A DNA stretch of 63,644 nt, the filler included, from Folioceros fuciformis (Eukaryota): assembly GCA_049999805.1 (NCBI GenBank). It is 3 parts of 2 records of this genome, joined end to end, with 100 filler letters (N's around TTAATTAATTAA, not from the genome) between each part and the next. Parts side by side here need not be neighbours in the genome. Positions count along the whole stretch, not along the records: positions 51,344 to 63,644 come from JBNGIO010006348.1; 2 more parts are not named here. One strand, written 5' to 3'. The notes under the pieces were generated by a model. It ran no database searches and was not told where the DNA came from. It was given only the letters and a program-made list of their open reading frames with translations. Position numbers and translations under genes: made by a program. The stretch's first letter is position 1; the number at the start of each line of letters is the position of its first letter. Shown here piece by piece: positions 11,633-63,644 of the stretch.

Positions 11633-11879
11633 AGTGCCCACATTCTTTCACAGCGATATTCAAGGTTTCCATCCAGTGCACATATCTTCACGATACACAA
11701 ACTGCTGCTTCTCATGAACTGCACATGCACATGATGCAAGTGGGTTAAATGTGAAACATTCTGCCCCCTGAGCTTGGACAAACATTCTGCCACCTAAGGA
11801 TCTCAATCTTGGTCAATGACAGGCACAGGGAGCCGTATTAAAAATAAATTGATTATTGTCCACACTGTCGTGCACAGCA

Positions 11880-22229: not shown

Positions 22230-22554
22230 GGTTACTCCCCGATCAGCTTCACCAACACCGCCAGCAGCTGTTACAGGCGACGTAGCACGACGACCGACGA
22301 CGAGACTACAGCAAGGAACCCGCACCAGGCCCAGCAAAATCCTGGAGTAGTAGAACAGCACAGCAAAATTCACGCGAGCTGCAGAACACACGGGAGATGA
22401 TCTCACCAAATTACTTGACATGCAGAGCACACGAAATCAATCAACTCCAAGAACCACACCTGACCTGTGCTCAAGGACCCCCAAAAGGGAAAACGCTCCA
22501 ATTCAGCAACGAAAGAGGGAAAGATGATACACACGCCTTGCGTTCCACAACAGT

Positions 22555-25747: not shown

Positions 25748-26073
25748 TGCTCCTGCAAATGACAAGGTACTAAAGTTAGCTTCAGTAGAATAGTGCGAAA
25801 CAGAGATATCATTCTATCTGTACATAGTGACTGATAACGGATTAGGAGGACCCGAAAACGCAGCACTACCTTCAAGAGTTTACCTGTTAGCCAGTTGTGC
25901 CTACAGCGTGGTCTAGCTAAAAAGCAAGCATAAGATACTCGGAAAGCTGAGCAACAAATCAAAACACTACCACACCTGGTTAGAAGGATCCTGGAAGGCC
26001 CTGGCAAACAGACGCTCCGCTTCACCGACAAAGGATACAAGATCAATTCCTCGAACTACGTACTGCAAGCAAC

Positions 26074-31100: not shown

Positions 31101-34100
31101 ATGGCGGCCAGCAGCTGCGTGCATGTTGTGGTTCCGACGGGAGTGATTGAGGAGGAGCTCAAGGAGTTCATGGAGACGAAGGTCGGGCCGCTCTCGGGAT
31201 GGTCATATAACATCAAGAAGAGGTGTTTGTCGAGCAGGGATGTCGGCTACGCGTTGCTGCAGTTTACGGACCAGAGGCTCGCGGGGAAGGCTTGCGAGCT
31301 CTCGGCGGACAACAAGCTGCATCTCAGGGGCGGGAATTTGACGGTGACGCGCACCAGGTACGACATCAAGCAGGGCCCGTCTTACGGAATGGAGCGGTGG
31401 GGGAGCGGGACCTTCCATGGCGGTTGTCTTGTGTCCGATACCGATTTCAAGCTTATGTGGGATCCGGAGGTGGCCGCGGTCACGGAGTTCGATTTCCGTG
31501 CTAAATTGTTGCGCCTTGTGTTTAAACTTAAGTGCGAGGAGGACTGCGAGTGCAAGCTGGAATTTCCGTTTAACCAGCTGCATCTCACTGCACTTGCGCT
31601 GCGGAAGGAGCAGTACAAGGCCTTGTTCAAGCTGCAACACCTGCCTACTTCTACCGAACACTTCAAGGCGTTTCTGTTGAAGGTGATTTCGTTTCCTGCT
31701 CCTTCATTTCCTGCCTGCTGCTTCCCCTCTGTTGTGCTGTCCCCGCTGTTTTCCTGCTAGTTGCTTCGCCTCCTTTCCCTGCATTTTTCATTTTCCCAGT
31801 TCCCCTGCTATTTTCCCGCAGCTTCCTGTTTTGTTCACGATGGCTGATTCCCTCTGCGTCTCCTGCTTCACCCTCCCTCTGCTTCTCCTCCTGCGGTGTC
31901 TGTGGCATTTACCTGCCACTGAAACTGGCTGGCTGTCAAGCTGCAGCCAGATTGGGCTCCGCAAGTTTTCAAGCGATCTTGTAGGGAGTTGGTGCCGCCG
32001 CCAAAAGAGTCCCTGCTCAATTCTATCCATGAGTTTTGCGACGCCAAGACCTTCCACAATGTTGGAGGGCCTGAGGAGGTCTGGACCAGAATGGGAGATC
32101 TGCTTCCCGACTACCCCATTGCACAGTGTCGTCAGTTTCTGGTGCTTGTCTCCAATGTTTCTGACGAGGAGAGCAAGAAAGTTTTGGAGATGCTTGGAGA
32201 TTATGCGGTGGTGGCCCCTGCAGGAAGGCAAGCGTTGGAGACCCAAGTGCATCTCTACTATGCTTTTAAACAGCCATTTGGGCCTGTGCTCGGCTCTCCG
32301 CACATGAATGCACTTCCGTTTGAGCTGTATTTCAAGCTCCATAGCTTGGTACATTTTGGGACATTGGCGGCACCGAGCTTGACACCACAGTTTCTGGCCA
32401 TGATCCGGCCCTCTTATGATTCTCCTGTAGAGTGGACTATGCAGGCTTTAGAGGAGATGGGCACTGAGGAGGGCCTTGTGTCTAATCCGATGACGTATGT
32501 TCGTGATGCACTCGATAAAATGAGTCAGGAGGCAACCTCATTGAAAGCTCCTGTGGAGCACCGATCTCGCACCCACTATGGCCACCATGTCTGGGTTCGG
32601 CGTATGTTTGTCACTCCATCCAGGATTCTGTTGTACGGACCTGAGCTAGAGCCCTCTAATCGGGTCACTAGGCAGTTCGTGAAGCACATCGACTGCTTCC
32701 TTCGTGTCGTCTTTGTGGAGGAGGATTTGAGCCCGCTGCAGTATCAAGCGTTGGCTAAGCCCATAAAGAGCTTTGATTCGAATCTCCTCCCTGAGTCTAC
32801 GGCAGTACACCAGAGGATGAAGAAAATAATGGACGGGTTCTGGATTGCTGACAAGAGGTTCGAGACTCTTGCCTTCTCAACTAGTCAGCTTCGGGAGAAG
32901 TCACTTTGGATGTTTGCAGCTCCCAATTCTGAAGTAACTTGTGAAACTATCAGGAAATTCATGGGGGATTTTGGTATGATTCGGAATGTGGCCAAGTATG
33001 CTGCGCGCATGGGGCAGTGCTTCTCTGCAAGCACTCCTACTTACGATGTCCCCACTAGTCAGGTAGAGCGTATTTCAGATATTTTCACCACGCGTAACGG
33101 TATCACGTACAACTTCTCGGATGGCATTGGTAAGATATCACTTGTCTTTGCCAGGGAAGTTTCCAGAAAGTGTGGATTCATCAAGTGCGATGGCAGAGTT
33201 CCTTCCGCCTATCACATCCGTTATGGTGGCTATAAGGGCGTTGTTGCACAAGATCCTACTGTAGAGTCCAACATGACACTCTTTCTCCGGGACAGTATGT
33301 GTAAGTTTGAGTCTACTCATACTGGGTTTGAAGTGATTAAATGCAGTACGGCAAAGCCATGCCACCTCAATCGTCAGATAATCACATTACTGTCTACTCT
33401 CGGCATTCCAGATGAGACCTTTGAAGACATGCTGAAGTATGTGCTAGGGGAGCTGGATGCCATGCTGCATGATCCAGCTAGGGCTCTGCAGTTCTACTCC
33501 GGTGATATGCTAGCTTGCTTGCTCAACGTTGGGTTCGATCCTTCACTTGACCCACACTTAATGGGCGTGCTGCGAACCATGCGTGCATCACAACTTTTGG
33601 ATCTGCGGAAGAAGGCACGTATCCCAGTGAGGAAGGGTAGGATGATGCTAGGTTGTCTTGATGAGGCACGAACTCTGCAGGGTGGCGAAGTCTTCATTCA
33701 AATTTCTCCTCTGGCTACAGATTGTGGTGTGATGATAGACGGCACTCTGTCTCCAGTAATTGTAGATGGAAAAGTTTCGACTTACATTGTCACAGGGGAT
33801 GTAATTGTCACCAGGAGTCCTTGCCTGCACCCTGGGGATATCCGACGGTTGAATGCTGTAGATAACCAACGTTTGCGGCATATGGTGGATTGTGTGGTGT
33901 TTCCTCAAGTCGGCACCAGGTACTTTCTCCTCAGGAAGGAGGACCGCATGAACGCTGGCCCTCTATTTTTCTTCCCTTCATGCTTCTTGATGTTGTCTTA
34001 AATTCTAATAAACTGCCATCTATGATCAGGCCTCACCCCAGCGAATGTTCAGGTGGAGATTTGGATGGAGATGAGTATCATGTAATCTGGGACCCTCGCC

Positions 34101-35077
34101 TGATTCCTTCAAGAATGGATGAACCTATGGACTACAAACCACCCCCGGAGACAAAATTGGATCATATACCTACGATTCAGGTACTGCTCAGAGACCTGTT
34201 GAAATTGAAAATTACCCGGTAGGTAGGGCTTGAAGAAGCGATCTGATGGCCTCCCCACTTCATGCAGGACATCAAAACTTTCCATGCAGATTCTTCTTTG
34301 AACCCGGCACTTGGTGTCATTACGAATGCGCATGTTGTGATGGCAGACAAATCTCCTGCCCGAGCTCGAGACAAACGGTGTCTGCAACTTGCAGAGTTGT
34401 GTTCAATTGCAGTCGATTTTCCAAAAACAGGTATTCCAGCTTATTTACCAATGGACCTGAAACCCAAAGAGTACCCAGATTTTATGGAAAAGGAGCACAC
34501 AGAGATAACGTATGAGTCCACCACTATCTTGGGAAAGCTCTGGAGGCAGGTCAAACATTCAGGACGGGAGTTACTTCCGGAGTTTCTCTCTCCGACAAAG
34601 GAGTCTGTATCTCGAGCCTTTAGTCCCTCTTTTGTTGTAGATGGGTATCAGGACTATCTAGAGATCGCTGAAATCCACAAGAACTGGTACGACAAGAAGC
34701 TGATAGGATTGATGAATCGGTATGGAGTCAAGAATGAGTCTGAGATCTATTCAGGTTTCATTTTAGGTGTCTCTCCTCGATATAAGAAGCGGGGTGCGGA
34801 CGAAAAGGAGAGGATTGCTGGGGTTATGAAAGAACTCTCTAACGAGGCAAGGAAGACCTTCGAAGACGATAAGGGCAACGAAGAGGCGGCCAATGCAAAG
34901 GTGTCGGCCTATTATTATGTAACTTACCACGAGACGTATTACGAGAAGAATTTGTCAGCGAGCGGTTCTAATGTGCATCTGCTGAGTTTCCCGTGGGTGT
35001 TTTGGGAGCGGCTCGTGAGCATCACGAGATCCAAAGGTGCCGCAGCTGGATCTCATGCGACCTCTTTCCAAGCATGA
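31101..35077 (+). CDS. RNA-dependent RNA polymerase, alpha clade (RDR1/RDR2-like), 4 exons
   Basis: N-terminal RRM-like region; motifs ELEPSNRVTR, AFSTSQLREKSLWMF, KYAARMGQCFS, FSDGIGKIS, IRYGGYKGV, PCLHPGDIR and catalytic CSGGDLDGD; introns at about 31683-31940, 33920-34029 and 34181-34268. Confidence 0.93.
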
Positions 35078-44300: not shown

Positions 44301-45157
44301 AACTAAAGCTACAACAAGCAAGGTGATGGTTTTTGAATACGCTAAAGAAACCATTGGAGGTTCTATATTTGTAGGAATATCGATGGTATATGCATGAAAA
44401 GAATATAGTCCAGAGCTAGAATAATATAACCATTCTTAAAATAAGATTAAAATCCTCCAGAGGCGAATGAGCGGAGCATATCCTATCCCAATCTATCCAT
44501 GAGTCTGGTCGTCCAGATCCAGTTGACGACGGTCGGGAGCCTGTACGTCTTTATCGTGACGTAGGCTGGGAATGACTTGGTTGCCAAATGGCAGGCAGTG
44601 AAGCTGCTGGCGGCCGGCAGTCCGCGGATGCCGGAAGGCGCCGCGCGTCCAGATTCTTGCTTTCACTGCTCCAGATTCTTGTTTCCACTGCTGGCTTTGG
44701 CTCTGGCTCCAGCTCTTCCCGCTCCCGGCTCTGGGTGTACCAGCCTCAGGTGCACGGGCCAATCGGGCATTACACCCACAAATATATTCTTGTATGTGCG
44801 CACGGCTTGCCTGCTAAAAGGCATTGGCTGGGCAGCCGTAATGTACGATGGCGCGTGACGGTCATATGGTTGCAGCAGTCTGTGCCATCTGGAGGCTGGG
44901 TTCCATTTGCCATTTGGGCTCGTCAGCTCGCATCCTCTTGTCAGAACACCGTCCTGGCAGTGGCATCCTCGTCCTCCTCCTCTGCAGACCGCAGAGTTAG
45001 GGGGCAGTGTTAGTAGTTAGCGTGTCTGGCAAATTGTGAGCGCCCTCAACATGATGGGCGCGCAGGATCGAGAGGATACCGCTGCCGAGGCCAGGGATAT
45101 TACTCCCAGCTCCCCCCGTTCGCTTCAGGCAAGAAGTGATGCGGATGAGAAGGCGGG

Positions 45158-47578
45158 ATGATGGAGGAAAGGGCAGATGAGGGGACGGACGTGGCGGGGT
45201 TCGGGTTATTACGGTGTAGTGTGTTGGTGAAGCTTGTGGTGCTGTTTTGCGTTGCGGGATTTGCAGTGACATCGGTTGGCAATGCCCAGAATGTGGACTT
45301 GTGGATCCCTTTGTTCAACTCCTCCGCCCTCTCCTGCTCCGGGTCCTTTCAATTCGCGGCCGACCAGTCTGCCGTGGACATGGGGAAGGTGGATCCCGGG
45401 CCGGAATTTCTCAGCGCCAGGGCAATGTACACCCGGCCCGTGCAGCTGTACGACGGCAGCTCCATGGCTTCCTTCTCCACCTCCTTCCTCCTCTCCATCG
45501 AGACAGCTCGGAATTTCAGTCTTGGGGATGGCATCGCATTCCTCATAGCTCCTGCCACAGCTGCGTCTGCGCCTGCCAACGCATCCGGGGGAAGTCTGGG
45601 TCTGTTCCAGGTTTTGCCCACGGGAGAGTCTGTGTTGGGCGACCGCACCAGGATCGTGGCTGTGGAATTCGACACCTTCACCGACCCCTGGGACAAGGGC
45701 GCGGGACACCACGTCGGGCTGGATATCAATAGCGTGGCTTCCGCCAAGCAGGCTCCTTTCCCCGACACCTTCGCTATCGGGAGCGGGAAGGTGGGGGTCT
45801 GGATCGACTACGACGCCCACGCCCTGCAGCTGGAGGTGCGGATGATGATGCAGCACAGCGGGAACTCCACCACCAGCTCACAGCCAGTGCCGCTGCTGGC
45901 CATGGACAAGAGCAATGCCACCCTGGTCCTCGCCTACTCCAACTTTAATCTCTCCGCCTTCGTGCAAGATTTCTCCTACGTGGGATTCTCAGCCTCCGGG
46001 ACGGCCCAGCACGCGCAGGTGAACCGCATCTCTTCCTGGCACTTGACCACATCCGGGCTTCGCTCTCCTGACGCCCCCGGGCCCGCGCCCCTTCCCAGAT
46101 CAGAGGGCAAGCACAGCCGCGGCATCCCGTCGACAGGGGAGAAGGCAGCCGTGGTTGCGGCCGGGCTCTTGGTGGCCTTGTGCCTAGGAGTGGGCGCCAT
46201 AGCCATCTCGGTGCTGCTGCGGAGGAGGAGCAACAAGGGCAATGCCAATGGGGATGCCGGACTTGGCATTGCAAGCTTCCCAAAATTCGACAAGAGGAAG
46301 AAGAGACGGGTGCAGAGGAGGAGGCTGCTGGACGACGCAGGGTGGAGCGGGTCGGAGCTCGGGCTGGCCGGGCCCAGGAGGTTCTCGTACAAGGAGCTAA
46401 GCGTGGCGACAAGGGGCTTCAGCCAGACGGTGGGGAAGGGGGGCTTCGGGNNNNNNNNNNNNNNNNNNNNNNNNNNNNNNNNNNNNNNNNNNNNNNNNNN
46501 NNNNNNNNNNNNNNNNNNNNNNNNNNNNNNNNNNNNNNNNNNNNNNNNNNAGCTGCTTCTGGTGTACGACTACATGCCCAATGGCAGCCTGGACCGATAC
46601 CTCTTCAGACGCAGGAAAAGCGACCTGCCGCCCCTGGACTGGACCCAGCGCTTCAATGTCATCAAGGGCGTGGCCGCCGCGCTGCTCCACCTGCACGAAG
46701 AGTGGGATCAGCCTGTGGTGCACCGGGATGTCAAGGCCAGCAATGTGATGCTGGATGCCGACATGAATGCCAGGCTCACTGATTTCGGGCTCGCCCGCCT
46801 CATGCCCAGCAGCAAGTATTCCCAGACCGTTACAATAACAGCAGGTAGGTCTCCAGCAACAATACTGGACATTGCAAGCATTGCTGTAGCTGCAATTGTG
46901 GGACAGGAATGGCTTACTCACCTTCCCTTCCCTTCCATTTGCTTCGCTTCGCTTCTCGTGTCTGGCGCTGGTGCAGGAACTCCAGGGTACTTGGCGCCAG
47001 AATGCACCTACACGGGCAAGGTGAGTGCGGAATCAGACGTGTTCAGCTTCGGGGTAGTGGTGCTGGAAGTGGTGAGCGGCAGGCGGCCCGTGGACATGAA
47101 GAGGCCTCCCGCCGAGAGGTCGCTGGTGATGTGGATGTGGTCTCTGCACACGCAAGGTGGGGAGGAGGCTCTCCTTCAGGCGGTGGATGCCAGCCTGACG
47201 CCCAGCTGCAGCCGGGACTGGGAGCAGGTGACGCGGGTGCTCAAGGTGGGCCTGCTCTGTGCGCTGCCTCATCCTGCGGGCAGGCCAACCATCCGCCTGG
47301 CGCTGCAGTACCTCATGGGCGTGCAGCCCATCCCGCCGCTGCCTGCACGCGGGCCCGTCTCGCTCTTCGGGGTCAGCACTTCTCTGGACCGCCTCGACAT
47401 CGCCTCCCTCATGACTATGACCACCAGGGAGTTGAGCACTTGCTCGCCATCTCACACCACCGAGCACTCGCTCACTGGTTCATCGGCGCTGCCTCTACTG
47501 CGCAACAAGATGCAAGACCAGGAGTCAGAATCAGCGTCAGTATCATGTCAATGGGCCTCCGCAACGTCTCCGAGGTAG
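45158..47578 (+). CDS. L-type (legume) lectin receptor-like kinase
   Basis: Lectin motifs ASFSTSF, GDGIAF, VAVEFDTF, HHVGLDINS and YVGFSAS; TM helix; kinase motifs GKGGFG, VHRDVKASNVML, DFGLAR and GTPGYLAPE; probable intron near 46845-46977; N-gap in the kinase N-lobe. Confidence 0.93.
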   Translation: MMEERADEGTDVAGFGLLRCSVLVKLVVLFCVAGFAVTSVGNAQNVDLWIPLFNSSALSCSGSFQFAADQSAVDMGKVDPGPEFLSARAMYTRPVQLYDGSSMASFSTSFLLSIETARNFSLGDGIAFLIAPATAASAPANASGGSLGLFQVLPTGESVLGDRTRIVAVEFDTFTDPWDKGAGHHVGLDINSVASAKQAPFPDTFAIGSGKVGVWIDYDAHALQLEVRMMMQHSGNSTTSSQPVPLLAMDKSNATLVLAYSNFNLSAFVQDFSYVGFSASGTAQHAQVNRISSWHLTTSGLRSPDAPGPAPLPRSEGKHSRGIPSTGEKAAVVAAGLLVALCLGVGAIAISVLLRRRSNKGNANGDAGLGIASFPKFDKRKKRRVQRRRLLDDAGWSGSELGLAGPRRFSYKELSVATRGFSQTVGKGGFGXXXXXXXXXXXXXXXXXXXXXXXXXXXXXXXXXXLLLVYDYMPNGSLDRYLFRRRKSDLPPLDWTQRFNVIKGVAAALLHLHEEWDQPVVHRDVKASNVMLDADMNARLTDFGLARLMPSSKYSQTVTITAGRSPATILDIASIAVAAIVGQEWLTHLPFPSICFASLLVSGAGAGTPGYLAPECTYTGKVSAESDVFSFGVVVLEVVSGRRPVDMKRPPAERSLVMWMWSLHTQGGEEALLQAVDASLTPSCSRDWEQVTRVLKVGLLCALPHPAGRPTIRLALQYLMGVQPIPPLPARGPVSLFGVSTSLDRLDIASLMTMTTRELSTCSPSHTTEHSLTGSSALPLLRNKMQDQESESASVSCQWASATSPR

Positions 47579-50661: not shown

Positions 50662-51565
50662 GGTTGCCGATGCGGCTGGCGCAAGCACAACCTCTTCCCC
50701 CCTTTCAGCACCAACTTCTTCCTCCCGGATTTCAGCACCAGCCAAAGCTCACCACTATCCACCTCAACGCATTCCCTCCCTGACACCACACACCTACCTA
50801 TCTACCTACCTACCCGTCCAACACGCAGTCAATCCCCCTCTCTCGCACCTCACAATTCCGCTTCCTCCCTCACACCGCAGACACAAAACCAAACCTTCAC
50901 GCAAACAAAACCAAGGCTAGCCAAAAGACGAGGATCTTGAACCTAAACACCAGCCCGATCACTCCCGCACACAATGCAGCCCCGTACTCTATCTGTCCCT
51001 CACCAAACTACACACTCCTCTCGAACAATTCCGCACACCGTAAGCTCAAATTTGGAACCCTGCCAGCCTCCGATCCCACTCCCGCCAATCTTTTTTACGA
51101 AATTTTCACGCTGTCAGGCCAAGTAGTCCGCACATCCAGCTCCTCTCGCGCATTCCAGAATATTTCACACCGGTCCAGCCACACGCATTCCTCAAATTGC
51201 AGCCCGCACGCACGAAAGAAGCCTCCCGTTGCAAGAGCGCCGCNNNNNNNNNNNNNNNNNNNNNNNNNNNNNNNNNNNNNNNNNNNNTTAATTAATTAAN
51301 NNNNNNNNNNNNNNNNNNNNNNNNNNNNNNNNNNNNNNNNNNNCTATATACATGTAGATACCTAATGAATTCTAACTTTTTCCTTGGCCCTTGATATGGA
51401 AATGTTGTCACTTCAATGAGAAAATGTACTACATATAGTAAATATGCTTAATAAATCCTAACTTTTCCTTGGCTCTTGACATGGAAATGTTACTTCCTTT
51501 AGTTTCGACCAGGACACTCACTACATATACCTGCAAAGCCTATCTAGAAGCTTATTTCAAATAGT

Positions 51566-52132
51566 ATGAAGCAAATTGCTATGGCTAACAGCTCTTCAAT
51601 CTATGATATATCTACATATGTTCTTCAAAATGAAGAAGCCCATGTTGATTCCAAAGTGACTTGTGCAATTTGCCTTGATAGTCTTGAAGTAGGCCAAGAG
51701 ATTGCTAAAGTAAACACATGTGCTCATTCATATCATAAAAAATGTATAGATCGATGGTTGCAGAATCAGGCAACAACACATACATGCCCACTATGTAGGC
51801 AGGAAATCCGCATTAGAGAAGAGAATATACAACACTTTTTACCATCTTTAGGTCAAAGTGATGATTCAAATGCATTGATTAACACTTCACCATCAGAAGA
51901 TGATTATCAACTGATACGAGATTTCATGAATGGGATAACAGAAATGGATGAAAATTTGTATAGGCGCGTTGCCAACATGTTGGTACAACATAGAGAAAGT
52001 GCAATCCCAAGTAGCAATGAAGATGAGAGGAGTTTCTTGTATCTTGAACTGCAATGGAGCCTAGCTATGTTTGAAGAGAGTGACGGGGCTCTAGTACCTT
52101 GGGTACTAGATACCATAGCCTATCCCTTATAG
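51566..52132 (+). CDS. RING-H2 finger protein (putative E3 ligase), intronless and AT-rich
   Basis: CAICLD-x-CAHSYHKKCIDRWL-x-CPLCR. Confidence 0.75.
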   Translation: MKQIAMANSSSIYDISTYVLQNEEAHVDSKVTCAICLDSLEVGQEIAKVNTCAHSYHKKCIDRWLQNQATTHTCPLCRQEIRIREENIQHFLPSLGQSDDSNALINTSPSEDDYQLIRDFMNGITEMDENLYRRVANMLVQHRESAIPSSNEDERSFLYLELQWSLAMFEESDGALVPWVLDTIAYPL

Positions 52133-52309
52133 TGAGTATTATGTATATGTTACCACCATACCTTGATGGATATAATCCTCTGATTTGTGTGAAAAAAATA
52201 TATACTTGAAGTAATAAATTAAATTTATTATAATTCTATAAAGTTATTAAATAAATGATATATTTCTTCAGTATCATTAAATTATTAGTTTTCTAATTAA
52301 ATTTAATAT

Positions 52310-52882
52310 TGCGAGGGAGTAACAACGTTGGTTTGAGTGCCAAGTAAGCTCCATGCAAAGGCATGTTTAGCATAGCAGGTAACTAAGAGAGCATGAGAAG
52401 AATGCAACCCTAGGAAAAAGTGTGTGGTAGTGAATAATAGCTTAAGGCTTAAGTAAGTGCTTAAGTAAGTAGTTGCTAAGTTAGTGACTTGAGCTTGTGT
52501 ATAAAAGGGGACCTAGCCAAGGGCTAAGGGAAGTTCAGTACAATGAGTTGAGATGAGTATCTCCTCAAAGCCTTGAGAGCAATGGGTGCTTGGGCTATAC
52601 CTTGAGAGCATGTGTTGCTTGGGCTGTGAGAGCACATCAAAGCTCCTGTGAAGGAGCTGTGGGAGGAGGCCAAGAGAAGGGAGAGCTAAACTCCTAGCTT
52701 AGGCAAAGATGGAGGCCTAGTGCTGTGTCCGGTGTTTAAACCTGACCCAGTATTTAAACCTGACCCTTGCTTTGGCTTCTAACTGCGTGGTTCTGGCCCA
52801 CCCCGTTGAAGGGGTGTCACTGAGGGCCTTGTTTTAAAATATAGACCGGAATAGGAGAGAACCTTAGGAACGGGACTTCACA
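52310..52882 (+). mobile_element. Possible solo LTR
   Basis: TG...CA ends (TGCGAG / CTTCACA), internal TATAAAAGGGG and short internal repeats; sharp boundary with AT-rich DNA; no target-site duplication found. Confidence 0.35.
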
Positions 52883-53550
52883 TTAAAAGACCAAAGCGAG
52901 GCCTCCACCACGGAAACAAACAAGCAACGAACACGAAAGTGACACCATGAAAAACCGTTAGAAACACCCCGCTCTTAAGTTCCAATCCGCTCACAACGTG
53001 AAGGCTCATCCTTCCTGGCTCGTTCGATTTCATCACGCTCTGGAACTCACAACCTGGCAGGAATTAGAATCAAACTCCCGCAACTCCAAGCAAGTGAGCT
53101 CCTTGAAGGGTCGCAGGTACCGGTTTCCAGAAACTGCGCATTTTTGTCTTTGAAGCAAGCAGTCCTCAGCATACCAAACCCTTGCTCCCTTCTTCACCTT
53201 GTCGACAGTCATTCAGCTTGCTCGCCAAGCATAGAGGAATCAGGACTTTCTTGGATGAAAGCAGTCCCCGAGATGCTCAATCCTTCCATTTTTCTTGTTG
53301 GCACACTGTAGAGGAGTGCTTTTCTCGTTACAAAAGAAGTGTGAACTGCTGCTCCTGGTCATGGGCCTGCTAGTCATTCGGGCCTCTACTGAAAAGATGA
53401 GTCTCTTAAGGCAATGATTGCTCTATGAATACGGTTAGACTTGCGCTCATCAGTTACGTCTTGCAACTTGAGACCCTAAGCTCTGAGAACAGGACTTGGA
53501 GAACACAAAGCATTCTGGTCCTTGATGATGGCAGGACATGCTAGAGGAAC

Positions 53551-53590
53551 GGGTTTAGGGTTTAGGGTTTAGGGACCCTAAACCCTAAAC
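53551..53590. repeat. Short inverted interstitial telomeric repeats (TTTAGGG)n-A-(CCCTAAA)n
   Basis: GGGTTTAGGGTTTAGGGTTTAGGG A CCCTAAACCCTAAAC. Confidence 0.85.
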
Positions 53591-53879
53591 ACACCTTGTT
53601 GCAACTTCAACACAAAATATAATCAGAAGCTCTTGATCAGAGAACTTGAGGCTACCCACTCCTATGAAGAATTGAGGCAGATATAGGAATAATTGGAAAT
53701 GCTGGACCAGTCTGGACCTGCAATGGATCAGACAAGGAATAGCTGTAGCCACAACTGGCACGATGAAGGGAGGGCATAATCTAAACCCTGTTCTTGTTTT
53801 TGGGAGTCCTGAGGCTCATGATCTCGGCACAGTAACAAGTCTTGATACATGGCACTCATCGTTGGCTGCAGCAGTTTGA

Positions 53880-54250
53880 TCTTGTTGTCAAAGTCCAAGA
53901 TAATTCTCAAGGCTGAATACCAGTAAGTAACATATGCTCGCAACAAGCTATTGCCTTGTGTCCTCCCATGAAGCACCGTACCCATGGCCCCACATTTGTT
54001 GTCTCTAATGGCGAAGAAGAAAAAAAAAAGGGTCTTTCTCGCGTGCATCTTAAGAGAACACCACAATGCGCATAAATTTCCACGAGGTGGTCACCACCAC
54101 TAACGTTATTCACAGGCGCTCTTTCCGCAAGTCGGGAGTACAGCTGTCTGCCCCTCTGTAAAGCACCAGTGCTTCCACAGAATGCAACCAAGAGCAACAT
54201 GAGGGCCCCGCCACCTGCATGCGTTCAGAGACGGCAAGTGCCTCTTCACA
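53880..54250 (-). pseudogene. Degenerate PPR fragment
   Basis: LLVAFCGSTGALQRGRQLYSRLAER...HLVEIYAHCG resembles PLS PPR motifs. Confidence 0.5.
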
Positions 54251-55004
54251 CACTCCATGCTGGATAATCCTCGAGGCCCCGCAATTTAAATGCGTACTTG
54301 GCCACCGGGCAGGCGCCAGATGTCATTGAGGCAGCACGTCCTCACCTTTTTCAAAATGCACTCACAGCTTTTAGAACGATAAACGGATTGTTCGCCTTTC
54401 GCATATGCAAGCAATCTGACTTTTTCCCCCGCGGCAGGCATGGTGCACTATGTGTATTCGAGGTACAGTGTGGTCGATTCGAAGGAACTCGAAAGGGCAT
54501 TCTCATTCAACGCGCTTGGTCCGGACCAACCGCGTTTTCTCCTGATGAGTCCAAAGGAAGGGATGACGATGAATGGGGTAGGAACCTAGGTGAGCTGAGC
54601 TCAGGTGGTGGGTCCTACCGTCCACAAACCTACCTACTGCATCTACCTTCTATCTAAAGGAAGGCATCTTTCGTGCACGCAGCAGTGTAGCAGGAGTCGT
54701 GTCCTGTTGTGACAAGTAGGTGGGAGAGAATTGGAAGGAGGGCTGGAAGCAGCAGCTAAGAAAAGTTTAGGCTTTCCTGTCCGCGATGCTGGCCCAGTCA
54801 GTCCACAACACCTAGGCGTGGTTGGATAAACTACTGTGTGCAAGTATGGAGGAGGAATATCCACTGGTCACAGACAGACACAGAACGTGGGGACTGGGAA
54901 AAGCCACGCACGCTCAAGCCTTGATGAGTGGAGTGTGAGTGAGGCCTGTCAGCTCAGTTGCCGGCTACCACTCAACCCTCTCGTCTTCCGGAGATTCAAG
55001 AGTC

Positions 55005-55310
55005 TTGTATGGTGTCCCAATCCTCCCTGAGTGTGTGTGCTGTCAGGCTAACGTCCCCAAGCGTATCGTTCTCTGGGGTCCCTATCCTCTTCGAGTGTGT
55101 GTGCTGTGAGGTTGGTGTCCCCGTCCCCGAGCCTATCGTCGTGTGATCTGTCAATCCTCGCCAAGTGTGTGCTTGTGAGGTTGCTGTCTCCTGGCCTAAC
55201 TTCGTCTGGTTTCCCAATTCTCGCCTAGTGTGTGCTTGTGAGGTCGCTGTACCGTAGCCTATCCTTGTCTGGTGTCCCAATCCTCGAGTGTGTGCCGTGA
55301 GGTTGCTGCC
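55005..55310. repeat. Imperfect tandem repeats (about 60-70 bp) upstream of the Roco-like gene
   Basis: Recurring TGGTGTCCCAATCCTC...GTGTGTGC(T)TGTGAGGTTG units. Confidence 0.65.
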
Positions 55311-55376
55311 CCTGCTGCACAACGGATGATACATACATCTAAGGTGCATGGATTGCGAAGCGCAGCTTAGCACAGC

Positions 55377-58300
55377 ATGGCGGAGGAGGAGGACTGTGAC
55401 TCTCGCGAGTTGCCGGATAAGCTGCAACAGCTGCTGGAAGATGTGGAACGCAATGCCTTATCAAAACTACCCTGCTTGCACGGAGAGAAGTACGGCGATT
55501 TTTTCAGAAGGGGAGCTTCAGCGAGGACGGATGGCAGGCGCTGGCGAGTGCGCAAGCGCGTATTGACGTCTATTGGCCAGTGCCACAGTCTCCGCGGCGG
55601 TCGGAAGATCCTGTCGATGTGGGAAATCGGCATTGCTCGGGAGGATAAATGCGCGGTTCTGTTGGGGGCCCTGGCTACCAACCCTTACCTTGAAGCCATT
55701 GATCTGGGTGGGTGCCAAGGTTTTGGAACGCTGGCGGGTTGCAAGGCCCTGGGCCAGCTTATTGCTTCCAGTGGCAGCTTGCGACGGCTGGAGGCACCCG
55801 AGATTGGCCTTGATGTCGCTGGACTTGGTGCCCCTGTCGAAGGCGTCAACGAGGATTCTGTCCTGGAGTATTTGGAGCGAGGCTGCAATAGAGTGGGAGA
55901 TGGTGAAAGGGCACAGCACGTGGTTCGCATGCTGGCCACCGCTTCCCGTCTCAATGCCCTGTATCTCTATGGGATCGGCATGGATGAGGCGGGTGCCCAG
56001 TGTATTGCAACCGCACTTCCGGTCTGCGCCTCGCTCCGGGAGATTTGTTTGGGTCGGCGTAAGACATGTGGGGATTCGGTACTGGGCAGCCTGGGGCCCT
56101 TGAGCACAGTGTTGAAACTAGCTTTCACCCGTGATGATGGTGATGTGCATGCGCCATATCTGGGGTCACCAAGCTGTCATTGTATACCCGGAACAGTGAG
56201 GAGCGAGGCCTGGCCGACGCGCTGGCCGGAATGTTGCGCACCAACGATTGTATCACAGAGCTTATCAACAACGTTTTTGCAGTCCAGTGCGGCTTAGACG
56301 TCTGGCGCCACAACTCCACCCTCTCCAATTTTCAGTTGTTTGGCTATCCCGAGTCGTCAAGTGAATTTTCGGTGTCGTTTCTGGAATGCAAATCATTATG
56401 CATCCTGATCTTGAACTGGAGTTACTGGCCCTCTTTGATGATAGTCCTGGTGCAGTCTTTGGAGAAAAATACAGCCTTGAATCAGCTCAACATTCTGCAA
56501 TGGTACGAACTCGAAGATAAGCTCTCCAGAGAGTCGATGCACTCCTTGCAAGGCAACACCACTTTGCAGAAGATACTCGTAGGGGACACAAACTGGGAGA
56601 GGGAGGGAAAGCAGGCCATCATCAACGCGACGTTGGCACGCACAGTTACTCACAGGGGCTACTGGCCTCCTCTTTTAGAGGGGCAAGAGGCTGTGAAGCG
56701 CAGGGTTGGGCGCCTTTTCCTGTGCGGTGCACTTCACGCAGGGAAGACTACTCTCCGCACCACGTTGATTGCCGCATGGCGCGCGTTGCAACCACACACA
56801 TCACATTGTGCAGGATCTGCATCACCCAAAGTTGGATTCGGGGAACAACTGTCTCTAGCTTGGAAACGTCCGTGGTTCGGTAATGTTTCACTGGCAGGAG
56901 CTGCATTACCCGATCAGGGGTGGACTGTCCCCAGAACGGAAGGCATAGAGATGGAGATGCTGCACAACGACTATGAGATGGAAGTTACCATCTGGGATCT
57001 GGCTGGGAAAGCTCAGTACCGAGCTCTGCAAGATTACTTATTCCGGAGCTTCAACCAGACATGTGTCTTCCTGTTGAGATCTAACCCACTTGATGCCTGC
57101 AATCCTGGCGAACGCCTTCCGTCTGAGAAAATGCTGCTGGACAAGTTCAGAAACAGCTTCAAGTTTTGGCTTAGATTCATCCACTCTAATTCTCGCAACG
57201 TGGGTTCCTGCTTGCTTCGGGTATGTGTGGTTGTCACTCATAAGGATGAGATGGAGCATCTGTACGCTGAATCGCCAGTCGGTCTGCAGCAACCAGTCGT
57301 GGATGAGTTAGCCAAGACTTTCGAGGAGATACCTATCAGGACAATGCCTGTCATCATGGATGGCCGATCTAAACAGACTGTTCAGCCCTTGCTAGAGCAG
57401 CTATTCCAGTCATTTCAAGAGCTTCTTACGCTTCCTCTGTTTTGGGTCTCGGAGGCATGCAACGGATGCAGTGCGAGTTTGACTCACTGGGTATCTCAGA
57501 ATCCGGCTCAGCCTCTGATGACCAGGGAGAGATGCAAAAAGCTGTTCATCACAGATGATGAGCAACGCGTTCAAGCAATTCTTGCCTATCAGCACAATGC
57601 AGGCCGGGTCATCTGGTTTCAAGATGTTGATGTTGTGGTGGTGAATCCACACTGGATCAGTCATTCGTTCCTGGGCCACCTCATTCACCTTCTAACGGGA
57701 CCATCGATGTCGGAGAGATCGCCAGACCGTGGATTTGTTGCCGAAAACCTGAAGGACATTTTGGCCCGGATTCTCATGTATATGCAGGCGGCCGATAGGA
57801 TTCGTGTTCAAGATCTGGTATCATTGATGACGAGACTACACCTGTGCTATCGAGATGGTGCGAATTCAAGGCTTAGATTCTTCGTTCCCTTCACCTTGGA
57901 CAATGCCAAAGGTACAGTTCTTCAAGGGAAACGACAGTTAGACTGGAAGGGAGGTGCGGCGTCCAAGTACAATTACGTTGGGAGGCGGCTACAATGTCGA
58001 GAGGAAAGAAAGACGTTTTTTGGTCCAGGCTGCTTTCCAAGATTCCAGGTACGTTGCCTTCTGAGCTGTCTCTTTTGTTAGTCATTTAGCCTCTCTTGCG
58101 TTTCATGACATGGCCATTGGTTGTGCATTGCAGGTCAAGTGACAACAGATCTTGTTCCATTGGCTTTGCGGAATGAAGTCTCAGCAATACAGTATTGCAT
58201 GTAACTTGATCACATTTAACTTTAGTGGTATGGACGTATTTTCGGAGAGGAGTGGGGATATTGAGGAGGAGACCGGGGATATTGGGGATCATGTTGACAC

Positions 58301-58715
58301 TTTGATGAGCTCGTTAAAGAGCAAAGACGAAAGTGTCCAGCTCCTCCAAAAGCGCATCGTTGCAAAACTGAGAGCATTTTGTGCTTCTCCTGAAAGTAGT
58401 CCTGGAGTTGAACTAGTAGAAGGGGTCATCAGAACTGAGTGTGTGGAGAAGCCTACTCTCTGTATTCTCCGACACAATCAACCGGTTCTCATACAGCATT
58501 TGATGAAGTGCTGTCTAGATCATCACAAAAGCCATGCAGGGCAGACTTCCTCTGGCTCGGATTCATCCGATGATCGATGGTGCTGGCCAGAATTCCCTGC
58601 CGTCTATCCCTTGTGTATGAGAGGGCCACGGATCTCTTAAGTAGCGATGAGGTGCAGTCTGCCTTGCAAGAGTATCAGCCCCGGTGCATGCAGAGAAGTA
58701 TCTTGCCACGGGGTG
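55377..58715 (+). pseudogene. TORNADO1-like LRR-ROC-COR (Roco) gene, apparently disrupted
   Basis: RI-type LRRs; ROC G1 GALHAGKTT, switch RTEGIE, G3 IWDLAGK, G4 VVTHKD; COR motifs VVVNPHW, FFVPFTL, YVGRRLQC, FPRFQV and CASPESSPGVELVEGVIRTECV; frame break near 56180-56297, in-frame TGA at 58140 after intron 58049-58133, further frame break near 58600. Confidence 0.82.
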
Positions 58716-58967
58716 AGAATTCGACCCTTAAATCATGCGATAGATTTTCTCATCGTCTTCTCTACCAGTTCTGGAGATTTATCCTTCAGAAATGTTGAGG
58801 ATGGCACAAGCTTCATCATAGCTTTCATGAGGGCCATCGTTAATCACTCTGAAGATCAAGATGCGTCGAGCATTCGAATAAGAGTGATTCGCAAGGTCAC
58901 CCAAATGCAGGGAGTGCAGTGTCCTCAGTTCCTCAACTCACTCACTGGAAAGCTATACTGGTCATAA
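58716..58967 (+). pseudogene. Caspase-like small subunit (p10) fragment, copy 1
   Basis: DFLIVFSTSSGDLSFRNVEDGTSFI...QCPQFLNSLTGKLYWS matches the caspase p10 pattern DFL...ST..G..SWR....GSWFI...QMP....LTKKLYF. Confidence 0.7.
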
Positions 58968-59873
58968 CCACCTCACTCCCTGCACATGTTTGGTTGGCTA
59001 GCGTGAGGAGCGTGTGGTCAGGGCCTGTAGTGCCTTCCATCAAGCGTCAGGTATCAAGTGTCTCTCTAGCTGCGTACTGTACTGCCTGGTTGTTGGTGTG
59101 TCGAACTGTTGCTGATACGACCTTCTCACGTCTCCTCCCTTTCTATGCCTGTTTGGCAAGAACGTCCACTCACAGGGTCCTTGTGTGGATGAACAGATGA
59201 TGGGACGTGGAGGCCATGCGTAGGGAGGGAAGATTGTGCTGTGTTCGTACACAGGTGGGAGGTGATTGTTTCAAGAATCAAGTCCAAGTTTGGGGTTTTG
59301 TGGTGTTTACATTGTTCTGTTCACCAGCGTGAGGATGTATGCTTCATCTTCGCTTCCCGACCAGCCAAAAGCTGGAATAGGTAGTCCCTCTCTGAAATCG
59401 CGTCCGGAGGTTGTTTTTTCATGTCACAGTGATAGCAGATCTTGTGATAATTGTATCAGGTTTGCTGGCACGTGTAAGGGCCTTGTCGGGTGTTTTGAGT
59501 TTGGTGTTTGTCGCCGTTTATCCGTGTTAGGAACACATACTTCTCTCTTCCTTTTTCAATAAAACCCGTCGTCGNNNNNNNNNNNNNNNNNNNNNNNNNN
59601 NNNNNNNNNNNNNNNNNNNNNNNNNNNNNNNNNNNNNNNNNNNNNNNNNNNNNNNNNNNNNNNNNNNNNNNNNNGATCCCATCTCATCACATAAAGTGCC
59701 ATAAAGCGAGCAAGTACTATGTCGACCACAGGCACGGCGGCTGCTATGTACTCGGCTGCTCGTAGGCAAGCCACTTCCAAGCAGGAAAAGGTTGTCCAGA
59801 GCATGAAGTCTGGAGAAGAGTGATCTCATCTCAGCTGGACCCGGATCCGAAACAGAGTGCAAAGACGGAACGT
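58716..59873 (+). repeat. Segmental duplication, copy 1 (copy 2 at 62370-63644, running to the window end)
   Basis: Highly similar sequence from AGAATTCGACCCTT through the 3' flank, with scattered substitutions and an N-gap in copy 1. Confidence 0.92.
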
Positions 59874-61039
59874 AAACCTTCGGTTCTGCTTTCGTGCTGC
59901 CTGCAGGAATTGCGAATTGAAGTGAAGTGGAGCAAGGGAAAGCAGAGGAAAAAAAACAAAGAGGATTCCGGTCCAGATCAGGGGAACTGATGACCTGTCC
60001 ACCCTAAAGCCTGCTCCCTGCTCTGCGTCGTGCGAGGGGTATGAGCCAGGCACGAATTCCGCAACTCAGACCGAAAGCAGAAAGCGGGTCGAGGCCGTGC
60101 GCATCATGAGAAGCGGTACAGAGTAACCAAAGTTCTGTCGTTACGAGGAAGGTGAAAATAATGCGATCAGAGCTACAAACAGGTCGTCTCTGGCTATTTC
60201 GCCCTCGACGGCAAGCTTCAAGGTGAGCGAGATCGAGCAAAGGCGGAAGCAATGGCCTCGGGGCAAGGAGCAGATTGTTGCGGGCTGTTTGCGCCGGCAA
60301 CGGAGTAGGAGGCTGTAACGGGAAGAGGTGGAGAAAATGGAGCCCGAAATGGGCTGGATGCCGAGCGCCCTCAGGGCAGAAAGCCGGAACACCGCAGGGT
60401 TGCCGCTAATCGTGGATGGGGGGCAAACAAGAACCCCAAAAAGGGTAAGGTTCCTGTATGGCCCGTGCTTGCCTAGTAGTTGGGCCGGTACGTAGTGTGG
60501 GAAGCGAAACATTAGCGCAGGAAAAGGCAGAGCGTGGCATGAAGAAATGTTTGCTTGGAAGGTGGTGTCATGTTTTCTCTCCATGCGCGCACGGAATTGA
60601 AGTAGCATAAATGTCCTCTTTGGCCTGGACCCTAAAATTCGCGGACGCGCCAAAGGAGACACGTCTAGAATGGCGTAGACCTTAGAAGCCCGAAGCAAGC
60701 CGTAAGCATGTATCGAAGGAGGCTGCTAATGCTACTGCCACAAATGTTTTCCGGTGCAGGTTCGGGTTCAGGTGCAGGTGTCTATGTCCAGGAGGGGGGC
60801 CACTCCTACTTCCTCCAGGCGCAGTCCACTGGCCCCTTGCAGTTCTGCAGCAATTTCCCAGGTCCTGTGCACAGCTTCATTGCTCGCTGTTCAGCAGCTT
60901 TGTAGGCACTGCTCTTCATCGTCCAGGCCGCTACACGAACCCTGGCCCGGCTGCTGTGGGTTTGTGCCGTAACGAGGATGCGTTCGTGAGCGGCCTAGTA
61001 TACTAGTACTGTCCATGCACCTGCGACAGCGGTCCCGGA

Positions 61040-61885
61040 ATGATGGCCACAACGAAGGCTGAAGCTTGTTTTCTTCTTATTGCCCGTCATTTGCTTTCAG
61101 GCGGGACCCAGCCAATTGGCCTGTGCACAAGGATTCTACGAGGAGCTCAGGCTAGCCCCATCTTAGGGAGTCGACCCCTCGCAAGTAAGGCCTCCAGGTG
61201 CAGCAGTGTACGGAACCCACCAATTCCACTTCTGGGAGGGGGTGTGGGTGGTAGGGATGGATTTTCTAGCGATGGTCGTTCCCAGGAGCAGGAACACTTG
61301 TGGCATCAATTTTTTCTGGACCCTACCATGTGGTGGGACGACAGACGAAATAAGAAGAGCTCCCGCTCTCCTGACTTCCGGCGAAAGGGGTCCAACGAAG
61401 TGCTGTGCTTAAGCAACATGTTTAAGCCAGATTGGGTTGATGAGCAGCTCATGTCCTTGGATATCCAGATGGGCCATGGTGCCTCCCCCTCCAAGTTCAG
61501 GTTTTGGGATAGGATTGAACCTGGGAGGCGTGCAGGATCAGAAATGGCGGTTGGTACGGCTGTTACCGTGAGCATGTTATGTCAGCAGGGGAAGCTTTTT
61601 GAGGCCGTTGGAGCCCTGGAATCTCTGGCGGAGGCGGACTCTGGTGTTTCTCAGTCTCTGTTCTACACTGTCCTAAAACTGTGTATAGCTAGAAAGGATT
61701 TGGTTTCGGGGCGACGGGTTCACGATCTCACTGACAAACTTGGGTATGAGTCGAGTCCATACTTGGGGAACCATATCTTGCGCATGTATGCTTGTGGAGG
61801 TAGGCTGCCGGAGGCTATGGGTGTGTTCACCAGGGTGGGCAACCCTGGTGAACACAACCATGGCCTCCTGCAGCACACTTCATAG
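61040..61885 (+). pseudogene. Truncated PPR gene: transit-peptide-like N-terminus, OSB/PTAC9-type PDF motif and first PLS PPR motifs
   Basis: WHQFFLDPTMWWDDRRNKKSSRSPDFRRK (PDF motif); TVSMLCQQG...LGNHILRMYACGG is homologous to the start of the PPR modules at about 11250 and 9190. Confidence 0.75.
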
Positions 61886-62621
61886 GAAGTTCATGCGATT
61901 GCAATGATGGTCAGCATGGAAGAAGGCAGAGATGGAGGATAGGTAGACAGAGGGCGGCTTCAAGCTCTCTTCCAGATGTTGAAATTCCATACAGATATCG
62001 TGGTGAACGGTCCTAAGGAAGGGAAATCAAGGCTGAAAGCCATTCTTAGGGTCCCTCGCCTAGCAAAAGATGAGTGCTTTCTGTTTTGCGTGAACGCCCA
62101 TGGTGGGACTGATGAAGACGGAAGACAGTATGTTTTTGCTCAGGTGAAGCAGGCAAGGCGGAGAAGCTTTATGTTGAAGAAGAAATTTGAATCCCATCCC
62201 TGAATGCGAGTATTTGGCAAACAAGCCTGAGGTGGTTGTCGTAAATGCTTGCCGAGGCACTGGCACTCTTGTCAGAAGCATGAACGCACAGGGGTTGAGC
62301 CCCGCCGGCCTTGCCACTACCAGCAAAGCCGAAGGGTCAGACGTTCAGGGAAGCCAGGGTCCCAGCAATAGAATTCGACCCTTGTATCACGCGATAGATT
62401 TTCTCATCGTCTTCTCTACCAGTTCTGGAGATTTATCCTTCAGAAATGTTGAGGATGGCACAAGCTTCATCATAGCTTTCATGAGGGCCATCATTAAACA
62501 CTCTGAAAATGAAGATGTGTCGAGCATTCTAACAAGAGTGATTCGCAAGGTCACCCAAATGCAGGGAGTGCAGTGTCCTCAGTTCCTCAGCTCACTCACT
62601 GGAAAGCTATACTGGTCTTAA
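61886..62621 (+). pseudogene. Caspase-like (peptidase C14A-type) p20+p10 domain, interrupted by a TAG and two apparent 1-nt deletions
   Basis: AIAMMVS...GRDGG*VDRGRLQALFQMLKF; DECFLFCVNAHG (His codon 62099); CEYLANKPEVVVVNACRG (Cys codon 62250); p10 DFLIVFSTSSGDLSFR...QCPQFLSSLTGKLYWS. Confidence 0.75.
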
Positions 62622-63644
62622 CCACTCCATTCCCTGCACATGCCTGGTTGGCTAGCGTGAGGAGCGTGTGATCAGGGCCTGTAGTGCCTTCCATCAAGCG
62701 TCAGGTATCAAGTGTCTCTCTAGCTGCATACTGTACTGCCTGTTTGTTGGTGTGTCGAACTGCTTCTGATACGACCTTCTCACGTCTCCTCCCTTTCTAT
62801 GCCTGTTTGGCAAGAACGTCCTCTCAAAGGGTCCTTGTGTGGATGAACAGATGATGGGACGTGGAGGCCATGCGTAGGGAGGGAAGATCGTGCTGTGTTC
62901 GTACACAGGTGGGAGGTGATTGTTTCAAGAAGCAAGTCCAAGTTTGGGGTCTTGTGGTGTTTACATTGTTCTGTTCACCAGCGTGAGGATGTATGCTTCA
63001 TCTTCTCTTCCCAACCAGCCAAAAGCTGGGATAGGTAGTCCCTCTCTGAAATCGCGTCCGGAGGGTGTGCTTTCATGTCACAGTGATAGCAGAGCTCGTG
63101 ATAATTGTATCAGGTTTGCAAGCACGTGAAGGGGCCTTGTCGGGTGTTTTGGGTTTGGTCTTGTCGCCGTCGTTTATCCTTGTTAGGAACACATTGTTCT
63201 CTCTCTTGCTTTTTCAATAAAACCCGTCGTCGTGCCCCTCGTCAAACTTGAATTTGCTCCCTGGAGCAGCCACATGACATCTTCACACGCAGCAACGCCC
63301 AGAGCAGGAGAAGCCCGGATCAGACGCCTCCGGCAAGCGCTGCCGCCTCACTTTCACCTGATCATCCAGTGCACAGTGTGTCAACAGCGGCGACTATGAC
63401 GCCTGCAATTAGGCACGCCCGCTGATCCCATCTCATCACATAAAGTGCCATAAAGCGAGCAAGTACTATGCCGACCACAGGCACGGTGGCTGCTATGTAC
63501 TCGGCGGCGGCGGCGTAGGCAAGCCACTTCCAAGCAGGAAAAGGTCGTCCAGAGCATGAAGTCTGGAGAAGAGTGATCTCATCTCAGCTGGACCCGGCAT
63601 CTCAGCTGGACCCGGATCCGAAACAGAGTGCAAAGACGGAACGT

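Follow-up and report, generated by a model that had tools for sequence, protein, structure and literature searches.

A pseudogenised caspase-type domain of a plant protein family, probably linked to TORNADO1-like ROCO proteins, in Folioceros fuciformis

Do land plants possess caspases of the animal type? In the available portions of two publications, plants are described as lacking caspases and as using metacaspases instead (PMC10565124; PMC12521494), and the available portion of a third mentions caspase recruitment domains only (PMC11218826). The question is raised by a locus of Folioceros fuciformis (NCBI GenBank assembly GCA_049999805.1), in which a first-pass annotation, made from the sequence alone, had joined three reading frames at 61886–62621 into a C14A-like caspase domain. 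The locus lies in a stretch of 63,644 nucleotides, here called the window, that consists of three parts of two records joined end to end; positions 51,344 to 63,644 come from JBNGIO010006348.1, and all positions below count along the window. We regard 61886–62621, with considerable confidence, as a pseudogenised C14A-like domain of a plant family, at least some of whose members carry this domain at the C-terminus of a TORNADO1-like ROCO protein composed of leucine-rich repeats (LRR), a Roc GTPase domain and a COR domain (LRR-Roc-COR).

A complete Peptidase_C14 domain is encoded on the plus strand at 61886–62621, its reading broken by an in-frame TAG and by two frameshifts. The first-pass annotation is confirmed in its sequence and in its view of this copy as decayed. 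The first piece, 61886–61939 in frame 2, contains the first strand of the domain and the codon of the first arginine of the S1 pocket (61928–61930), and aligns with a conserved SME...RxGG segment of seven relatives introduced below. It is followed by the TAG at 61940–61942, inside the domain, in an alignment column that is occupied by A, D, E or Q in the relatives. The second piece, from 61943 to approximately 62136 and still in frame 2, encodes the core of the p20 half with the catalytic His-Gly (62099–62104; His codon, 62099–62101). Five consecutive T (62133–62137) mark frameshift 1, from frame 2 to frame 1, where the third piece, about 62140–62187, connects His-Gly with the KP...NACRG strand. 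By eye, this piece corresponds to K-V-x-I-x-x-D-I-x-x-P, which is conserved in the relatives; it is poorly placed by MAFFT, and a tblastn alignment with the relative P0006 passes through it from 62154 in frame 0. Frameshift 2, at 62188–62189, leads from frame 1 to frame 0, and the fourth piece, 62190–62621, encodes the KP...NACRG strand (Cys codon, 62250–62252), the inter-subunit linker, the p10 half with the second S1 arginine in SFRN (62442–62444), and the last strand QCP...KLYW before the stop codon at 62619–62621.

The fourth piece alone (147 amino acids; 62178–62618) matches Pfam Peptidase_C14 with an E value of 1.7e-18 over profile positions 110–233 of 233. The p20 piece alone gave no Pfam match and was recovered by tblastn only: six intact relatives cover approximately 61886–62179 (E 1e-13 to 1e-27), and the seventh, which is truncated at its N-terminus, covers 62063–62155 only (E 1e-4). 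An NCBIfam search returned no useful match. The joining of the three frames is backed by the alignment to intact relatives and by paralogous contigs of the same organism.

The domain resembles metazoan caspases over its whole length. Searched with phmmer against the PDB, the 147-residue piece finds chains of caspase-3 (best E about 1e-7), Dronc, CED-3 and insect caspase-1 among the matches listed. Against 1.84 billion cluster representatives, it gives 170 matches at E ≤ 1e-3; the best 10 of these have identities of 30–41%, and all of the eight that are named are animals (Mytilus, Ladona, Gryllus, Oppiella, Anabrus, Nematostella caspase-6, Batillaria, and Thrips). A profile built from the seven relatives matches caspases of the PDB from the first to the last strand, with E values of 1.8e-36 for caspase-6, 3e-34 for caspase-8 and about 1e-33 to 1e-32 for caspase-3/7. 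An AlphaFold2 model of the relative P0049 (mean pLDDT 71, pTM 0.74) was compared with 48,161 PDB representatives (VIA Z): entries of caspase-3/8/9 reach Z of 23.5–23.9, with a root-mean-square deviation of 2.5–2.9 over 207–211 aligned residues at 26–27% identity, and Sf-caspase-1, CED-3, caspase-4, c-FLIP and Dronc follow at 19.8–21.8. Foldseek with the same model likewise gives caspases, including CED-3, among the matches listed.

The residues that characterize caspases, which the earlier annotation had claimed in full, are retained with one exception. The catalytic His-Gly and the Cys within xACRG, the latter behind a KP segment, are present in the window, as is a last strand of the form Q..P...L..KL(Y/F)(W/F). 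In caspase-1, the arginines of the S1 pocket are numbered R179 and R341. By alignment, the first of them corresponds here to the arginine of RxGG at 61928–61930, which in the family consensus is aligned to ERRG of caspase-6, and the second to the arginine of SFRN, which is aligned to SWRN of caspase-3 and SHR of caspase-6. What did not stand is the glutamine of QACRG, which is Asn in the window. These sequence features and the predicted fold, with Z of about 24, support a C14A-type caspase rather than a metacaspase by every feature testable except this glutamine. Unlike metazoan caspases, the domain is of plant source, has NACRG instead of QACRG and shares only about 25–41% identity with them; furthermore, the plant sequences form a clade of their own, lack CARD, DED or any other death-fold prodomain, and are preceded by COR in at least one member.

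The seven relatives (P0006, P0017, P0022, P0026, P0036, P0049, and P0099) share the particular motifs of the window among the 150 matches listed. Peptidase_C14 is found in all seven with E values of 1e-21 to 1e-39, and nearly the whole profile is covered in six of them. His, Gly, Cys-Arg-Gly and the p10 arginine are invariant in all seven, with counterparts of each in the window; the first S1 arginine is kept in the six that cover it, P0017 starting after that segment. The relatives differ from each other by 44–71%, and the family is therefore old. In a 51-row IQ-TREE phylogeny, the window copy, entered as a read-through with X at its three breaks, as in all our trees, and the seven relatives stand together on one side of a branch with a Shimodaira–Hasegawa-like approximate likelihood ratio test (SH-aLRT) value of 100; in a 120-row FastTree phylogeny, from which P0017 was dropped by the domain filter, the seven family rows are on one side of a branch with support 99. 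P0017 is a Trinity transcript labelled Nothoceros aenigmaticus, a hornwort, and falls into this clade of eight; relatives, whose absence from related plants would have spoken against the first-pass annotation, do exist. The other six relatives come from Logan or JGI/IMG.

An Atlas search with P0006 gave animal caspase clusters only, at 0.87–0.89, below the trusted mark. None of 23 loci from a metagenome scan was taken as a family member: by tblastn, 18 are nearer animal caspases and five are marginally nearer the plant family, in short segments only. Among 185,579 prokaryote genomes and in IMG/VR, no relative turned up in pattern scans.

What was this domain attached to? About 3.6 kb upstream of it lies the body of a ROCO-like, TORNADO1-like gene (55371–58640, plus strand) in three open frames: 55371–56297; 56144–58081, with a P-loop, DxxG and COR-A; and 58143–58640, with the end of COR, closing with TAA at 58638–58640. 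In Pfam, the middle frame shows Roc (8.7e-4, 20.0 bits; cut-off, 27) and then COR-A (2.5e-6, 27.9 bits; cut-off, 35.3). The nearest Atlas cluster of the gene is "Tornado 1" of Streptophyta at 0.96, which is a lead only. The likeness to plant TORNADO1 (LRR-Roc-COR) consists of P-loop, DxxG and COR-A in this order, with Pfam scores below threshold, and of this cluster name; in contrast to plant TORNADO1 and other ROCO proteins, for which no published case with a caspase end domain was found, this gene is followed by caspase remains. These are located at 58716–58967 on the plus strand, in the frame of the COR-end open reading frame (ORF) but behind its stop, and consist of a p10 half only, matching Peptidase_C14 at 3.6e-9 over profile positions 158–233 without catalytic His or Cys. 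This second relic and the ROCO context go beyond what the first-pass annotation had described. A remnant of p20 upstream of the p10 half was not found by tblastn with the seven relatives, which gave the p10 part only, and DNA similarity between 58540–58720 and 61800–62000 was also absent, the score of 16 being that of the shuffle mean (16.5).

The only long relative found for the ROCO ORF is P0163 of Riccia fluitans (E 6e-35, 29% identity), which matches 56702–58054 (Roc-COR) and 58236–58520 (COR end, E 3e-15). P0163, a liverwort protein of 1704 amino acids, is an unusual hybrid of a nucleotide-binding leucine-rich repeat (NLR) protein and a ROCO protein, in which NB-ARC, LRR, Roc and COR-B are combined with an alpha/beta hydrolase at the C-terminus. 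It shares with the window gene the same COR end and has an enzyme domain after COR, while this domain is an alpha/beta hydrolase instead of a caspase and an NB-ARC is additionally present. By analogy with immune receptors, a hydrolase behind the same COR end suggests a modular design of sensor, Roc-COR and enzyme.

The two relics share a duplicated block comprising the p10 half and its 3′ flank, with copy 1 at 58716–59873 (plus strand; interrupted by a run of N at 59575–59674) and copy 2 at 62370–63644 (plus strand; to the end of the window). By blastn, 62370–63232 is 94.1% identical to 58716–59574, and 63424–63644 is 94–100% identical to 59675–59873; the boundary of homology is sharp at 58714/62368. 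The 94% likeness of the p10 halves and approximately 1.2 kb of 3′ flank is the result of duplication or gene conversion. Twelve of 252 nucleotides differ between the p10 halves, nine nonsynonymous and three synonymous, and identity is 95.2% in the coding part and 93.6% in the flank; from these small numbers, the pattern of difference appears close to neutral.

Two observations connect the caspase domain with the ROCO gene. In P0006, the first 120 residues match the COR-end frame (58143–58637; E 8e-10), and a full caspase domain follows at residues 187–425. Furthermore, read evidence is available as contigs of the runs X1, X2 and X3, from one organism in two studies; X1 and X3 are DNA runs, the kind of X2 was guessed as RNA, and all statements on them cover the contig rows listed. 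An X1 contig (depth 81, side 30) joins 58450, in the COR end, to 61899, at the start of p20. From this fusion and this joint, the window is read as containing a tandem pair of ROCO-caspase paralogues, both decayed. Relic 1 would be a ROCO-like gene (55371–58640) that has kept only p10 of its caspase part, behind a stop, the p20 half being lost entirely. Relic 2 would have kept the caspase domain complete, lost its ROCO part, acquired a fragment of a pentatricopeptide repeat (PPR) gene upstream, and been broken by the stop and the two frameshifts. An open reading frame is thus absent from both copies, relic 2 having the TAG and two frameshifts and relic 1 lacking the p20 half. As relic 1 is without His and Cys and relic 2 is broken and without a start, an active protease from either is ruled out.

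Several findings weigh against this interpretation. The missing S1 glutamine is a feature of the family, the third S1 residue being Asn in six of the seven relatives as well as in the window, and the seventh having ICCRG. The organism label is on one of the seven relatives and comes from a transcriptome assembly, a kind of assembly that can contain animal contaminants, and a word-index search aimed at long relatives, run with the caspase piece and with P0006 residues 180–440, returned none, which is weak evidence. On the ROCO side, the Roc and COR-A scores are both under the curated cut-offs, phmmer against the PDB with the ROCO ORF is weak (best E 0.02), the search with this ORF gave only the liverwort protein with a different end domain, and no full-length intact ROCO-caspase protein has been seen, P0006 being the 450-residue product of a 3988-nucleotide contig. 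The trees do not resolve their deep nodes or the relation to animal caspases. As for the breaks, frameshift 1 is unsupported in the contigs of the DNA runs X1 and X3, and TAG 61940–61942 has no confirmation in any contig listed. At the p20 positions listed (61984, 61987, 62033, 62042, 62047, 62066, 62071, and 62074), the DNA-run contigs mostly or wholly have letters other than those of the window, position 62042 showing the window's letter in about a fifth of the X3 depth; the window's own p20 sequence, including the TAG, therefore lacks independent confirmation in the contigs listed.

How could a plant have come to possess such a family? Vertical descent with loss and an old horizontal transfer both fit the data. 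A transfer of a caspase gene from an animal or another non-plant source, followed by fusion to a resident ROCO gene and amplification, concerns the origin of the family and is compatible with the pseudogene interpretation; we hold it to be unlikely, though the least unlikely of the alternatives considered here. It would account for named nearest relatives outside the clade that are all metazoan, for the fact that the 1.84 billion representatives searched yielded no family member belonging to an NCBI or UniRef plant proteome, and for a caspase domain without intron in the window; caspases are, moreover, reported as absent from plants in the available part of a survey (PMC10565124). Against it, the clade has a long stem and is nested in no named animal group, identity to animal caspases is at most 41% among the ten best matches, and members that are 44–71% different from each other indicate an old family. 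The absence of relatives from the prokaryote genomes and IMG/VR leaves no bacterial or viral route visible. The nearest rows outside the clade are unnamed or belong to long-branched Drosophila sequences, and with the deep nodes as they are, no donor or sister group is inferred.

Is relic 2 a working gene after all, with its breaks being introns, recoding or assembly errors? This is very improbable. A GT..AG interval at 62144–62210 (67 nucleotides, phase 0) would link frame 2 to frame 0, and was considered as an intron in place of the two frameshifts; it was rejected, as it would excise a segment conserved in all seven relatives. Frameshift 1 lies in a homopolymer of five T and, together with the TAG, lacks confirmation from the DNA-run contigs listed, as a working gene would have it. 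Paralogous contigs lacking two nucleotides at 62133 account for depths of 71.1 of 71.1 in X1, 455.9 of 597.6 in X2 and 69 of 69 in X3, and the window's form is found in X2 only, where approximately 142 of the depth of 598 is without the two-nucleotide omission. Frameshift 2, in contrast, is confirmed by an X1 contig that is identical to the window over 62159–62420; in one X3 contig (depth 32.6 of 196.6), an extra G is found behind 62188. The domain has no start of its own, being preceded by TAG 61883–61885 and a foreign PPR fragment, and the nearly neutral pattern of difference between the p10 copies speaks further against a working gene.

The contigs point instead to other copies. At the same caspase sites, distinct contigs with other letters are found, for example six of X1 at 62369 and seven at 62633, and paralogues at least 90% alike therefore exist in the organism. 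Summed X1 depth is approximately 200 on the caspase part and 10–30 on the spacer; summed depths are not copy numbers and serve here only as evidence that distinct contigs cover the same sites. Both frameshifts are absent from paralogous copies of the same organism, and these contigs bear out the earlier expectation that an intact paralogue may exist elsewhere.

As to transcription, the runs listed as containing the stretch include none labelled as RNA. X2 contigs cover 58127–58546 (one other letter), 58517–58909 and 59194–59516 (both identical to the window) at depths of about 190–230, and the depth of its listed contigs in the spacer is 5–8. In X2 only, one contig (depth 217, side 33) has a GT..AG joint from 59047 to 59194 that skips 146 nucleotides. 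The joint falls within the 3′ flank that follows relic 1 and could mark an intron spliced out of the 3′ untranslated region of the ROCO-like gene; together with the depth contrast, it gives a hint of expression, and a hint only.

An animal contaminant or a chimeric join of the assembly, which the first-pass annotation had named as a danger to its own proposal, has hardly any probability left. Animal caspases are the best named matches, the scaffold has its run of N (59575–59674) between the two relics, and the DNA-run contigs listed mostly differ from the p20 letters of the window, all of which a contaminant or a faulty join might produce. However, the domain begins 40 nucleotides after the PPR fragment within the same gap-free stretch (59675–63644), and its p10 half with flank is duplicated behind the plant ROCO-like gene across the gap. 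The run of N is bridged by an X1 contig, contigs identical to the window cover 62159–62420 and long parts of the spacer, the stretch is present in runs of two studies with the same organism label, and identity to animals is only about 35%.

The surroundings are those of a plant nucleus. The PPR fragment just upstream (61436–61846, plus strand) comes from the N-terminal part of a PLS-type gene, lies in the frame of the p20 piece, separated from it by TAG 61883–61885, and is 54% identical over 137 amino acids (E 2e-36) to the N-terminal part of a PPR ORF of 1481 amino acids (7205–11647, minus strand) elsewhere in the window. The latter, a single frame at 7202–11647 on the minus strand, comprises a tandem pair of complete PLS-type PPR units; an E motif is present in both, and one E+ match lies at residues 756–783. 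The arrangement has the appearance of two PPR genes in tandem that have merged into one frame, and the repeat families D1, D2 and D5 lie here. Summed DNA-run depth at 61281–61924 is 650–2700, versus 10–30 in the spacer just upstream, and many contigs join across parts of it, so that the leader and first repeats of this PPR type must be very highly repeated in the organism. Two tandem copies of the gene for ribosomal protein P0 are found on the minus strand at 21402–22436 and 24785–25813, 3518 nucleotides apart, in a repeat that is 92% alike. A gene for a eukaryotic RNA-dependent RNA polymerase (RdRP), divided between two or more long frames, is located at 31923–35077 (plus strand; Pfam RdRP, 1.5e-122). 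At 45149–47578 (plus strand; with a run of N at 46451–46550 inside), a legume-lectin domain precedes a frame that is kinase-like by eye; together they are probably an L-type lectin receptor kinase. With PPR proteins bearing E/E+, ribosomal protein P0, a eukaryotic RdRP and a legume-lectin in the window, the locus is plant nuclear DNA and not foreign.

A divergent metacaspase, paracaspase or orthocaspase (C14B, Arg/Lys-specific) of a kind known in plants would fall under the same Pfam family, Peptidase_C14, which spans all these groups, and would fit what is known of plants, yet it is as improbable as any alternative considered here, with the P0049 model at Z of 23.5–23.9 and 26–27% identity to caspase-3/8/9 against 16.1 for AtMC4 and 18.2 for MALT1 at 15–16%, with caspases as all 60 of the 60 PDB profile matches listed, with both basic S1 residues of caspases retained, and with the last strand used by the predicted dimer described below. 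Metacaspases are Arg/Lys-specific and monomeric and have an acidic S1 pocket. Plant metacaspases such as AtMC4 and AtMC9 share with the window family the clan CD caspase-hemoglobinase fold and the Pfam family, and are the known caspase homologues of plants; they differ from it in Z (16.1 and 13.7), in identity (15% and 13%) and in the S1 residues, which are basic in the window family. Further Z values are 14.8 for legumain, 11.7 for Yca1 and 9.7 for a chain of entry 4af8. The earlier assignment to caspases is upheld by profile as well as fold, caspase-6 being the best PDB match of the profile and caspases exceeding AtMC4 in Z.

If the pseudogenised domain represents a family with intact members, what might these do? 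ROCO proteins are known to dimerise through COR, and caspases are activated by induced proximity and paired through their last strand. In intact members, the LRR would sense a signal, and the Roc-COR GTPase module would dimerise and so bring two caspase domains together, which would pair via the last strand as in animal caspases and become active by induced proximity. Cleavage would then be after Asp, as is predicted from the retention of both S1 arginines, and the Asn-for-Gln exchange could alter it. Such a protein would be sensor, switch and executioner in one chain, serving immunity or cell death.

The predicted homodimer of P0022 is consistent with this scheme. It has an ipSAE of 0.66, and the highest of three controls reaches 0.40; pLDDT does not fall below 74, and 73% or more of the contacts are shared between runs. 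Among proteins of solved structure, 21 of 30 that are pairs of one chain attain this mark, against 0 of 23 that are single chains. The predicted interface is symmetric and comprises residues 250–258, the last strand. Since caspase dimers have already been solved, the prediction may reflect memory and thus speaks for likeness, not for binding.

NLR-like proteins with fused protease domains occur in fungi and bacteria. Like these and like the apoptosome and inflammasome, the proposed protein would have a repeat-bearing NTPase switch controlling a caspase-fold protease by induced proximity; unlike them, the switch would be a Roc GTPase and not an ATPase of the STAND class (signal transduction ATPases with numerous domains), and the protease would be fused and not recruited via death-fold adaptors. 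We could not find an earlier description of any plant protein in which a caspase is fused after Roc-COR. In the literature covered, which does not include supplements and subscription journals, no plant or hornwort caspase of this type and no plant ROCO-caspase was found.

That a land-plant lineage, probably the hornworts, possesses multi-copy, expressed and catalytically competent Asp-directed caspases fused to TORNADO1-like LRR-Roc-COR, acting as sensors, switches and executioners in one chain in immunity or cell death, is offered as a tentative proposal, somewhat more likely to fail than to hold. The dead relics of the window are valuable as a pointer to this family, which would surprise specialists of plant cell death. 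If the proposal is true, a plant C14A clade with all catalytic and S1 residues but one is an exception to the rule that plants have no caspases, and its members would be the first true caspases of plants. The fusion to Roc-COR would be a new connection between sensor and caspase, one that does without death-fold adaptors, and the family bears on whether caspases predate animals or were transferred.

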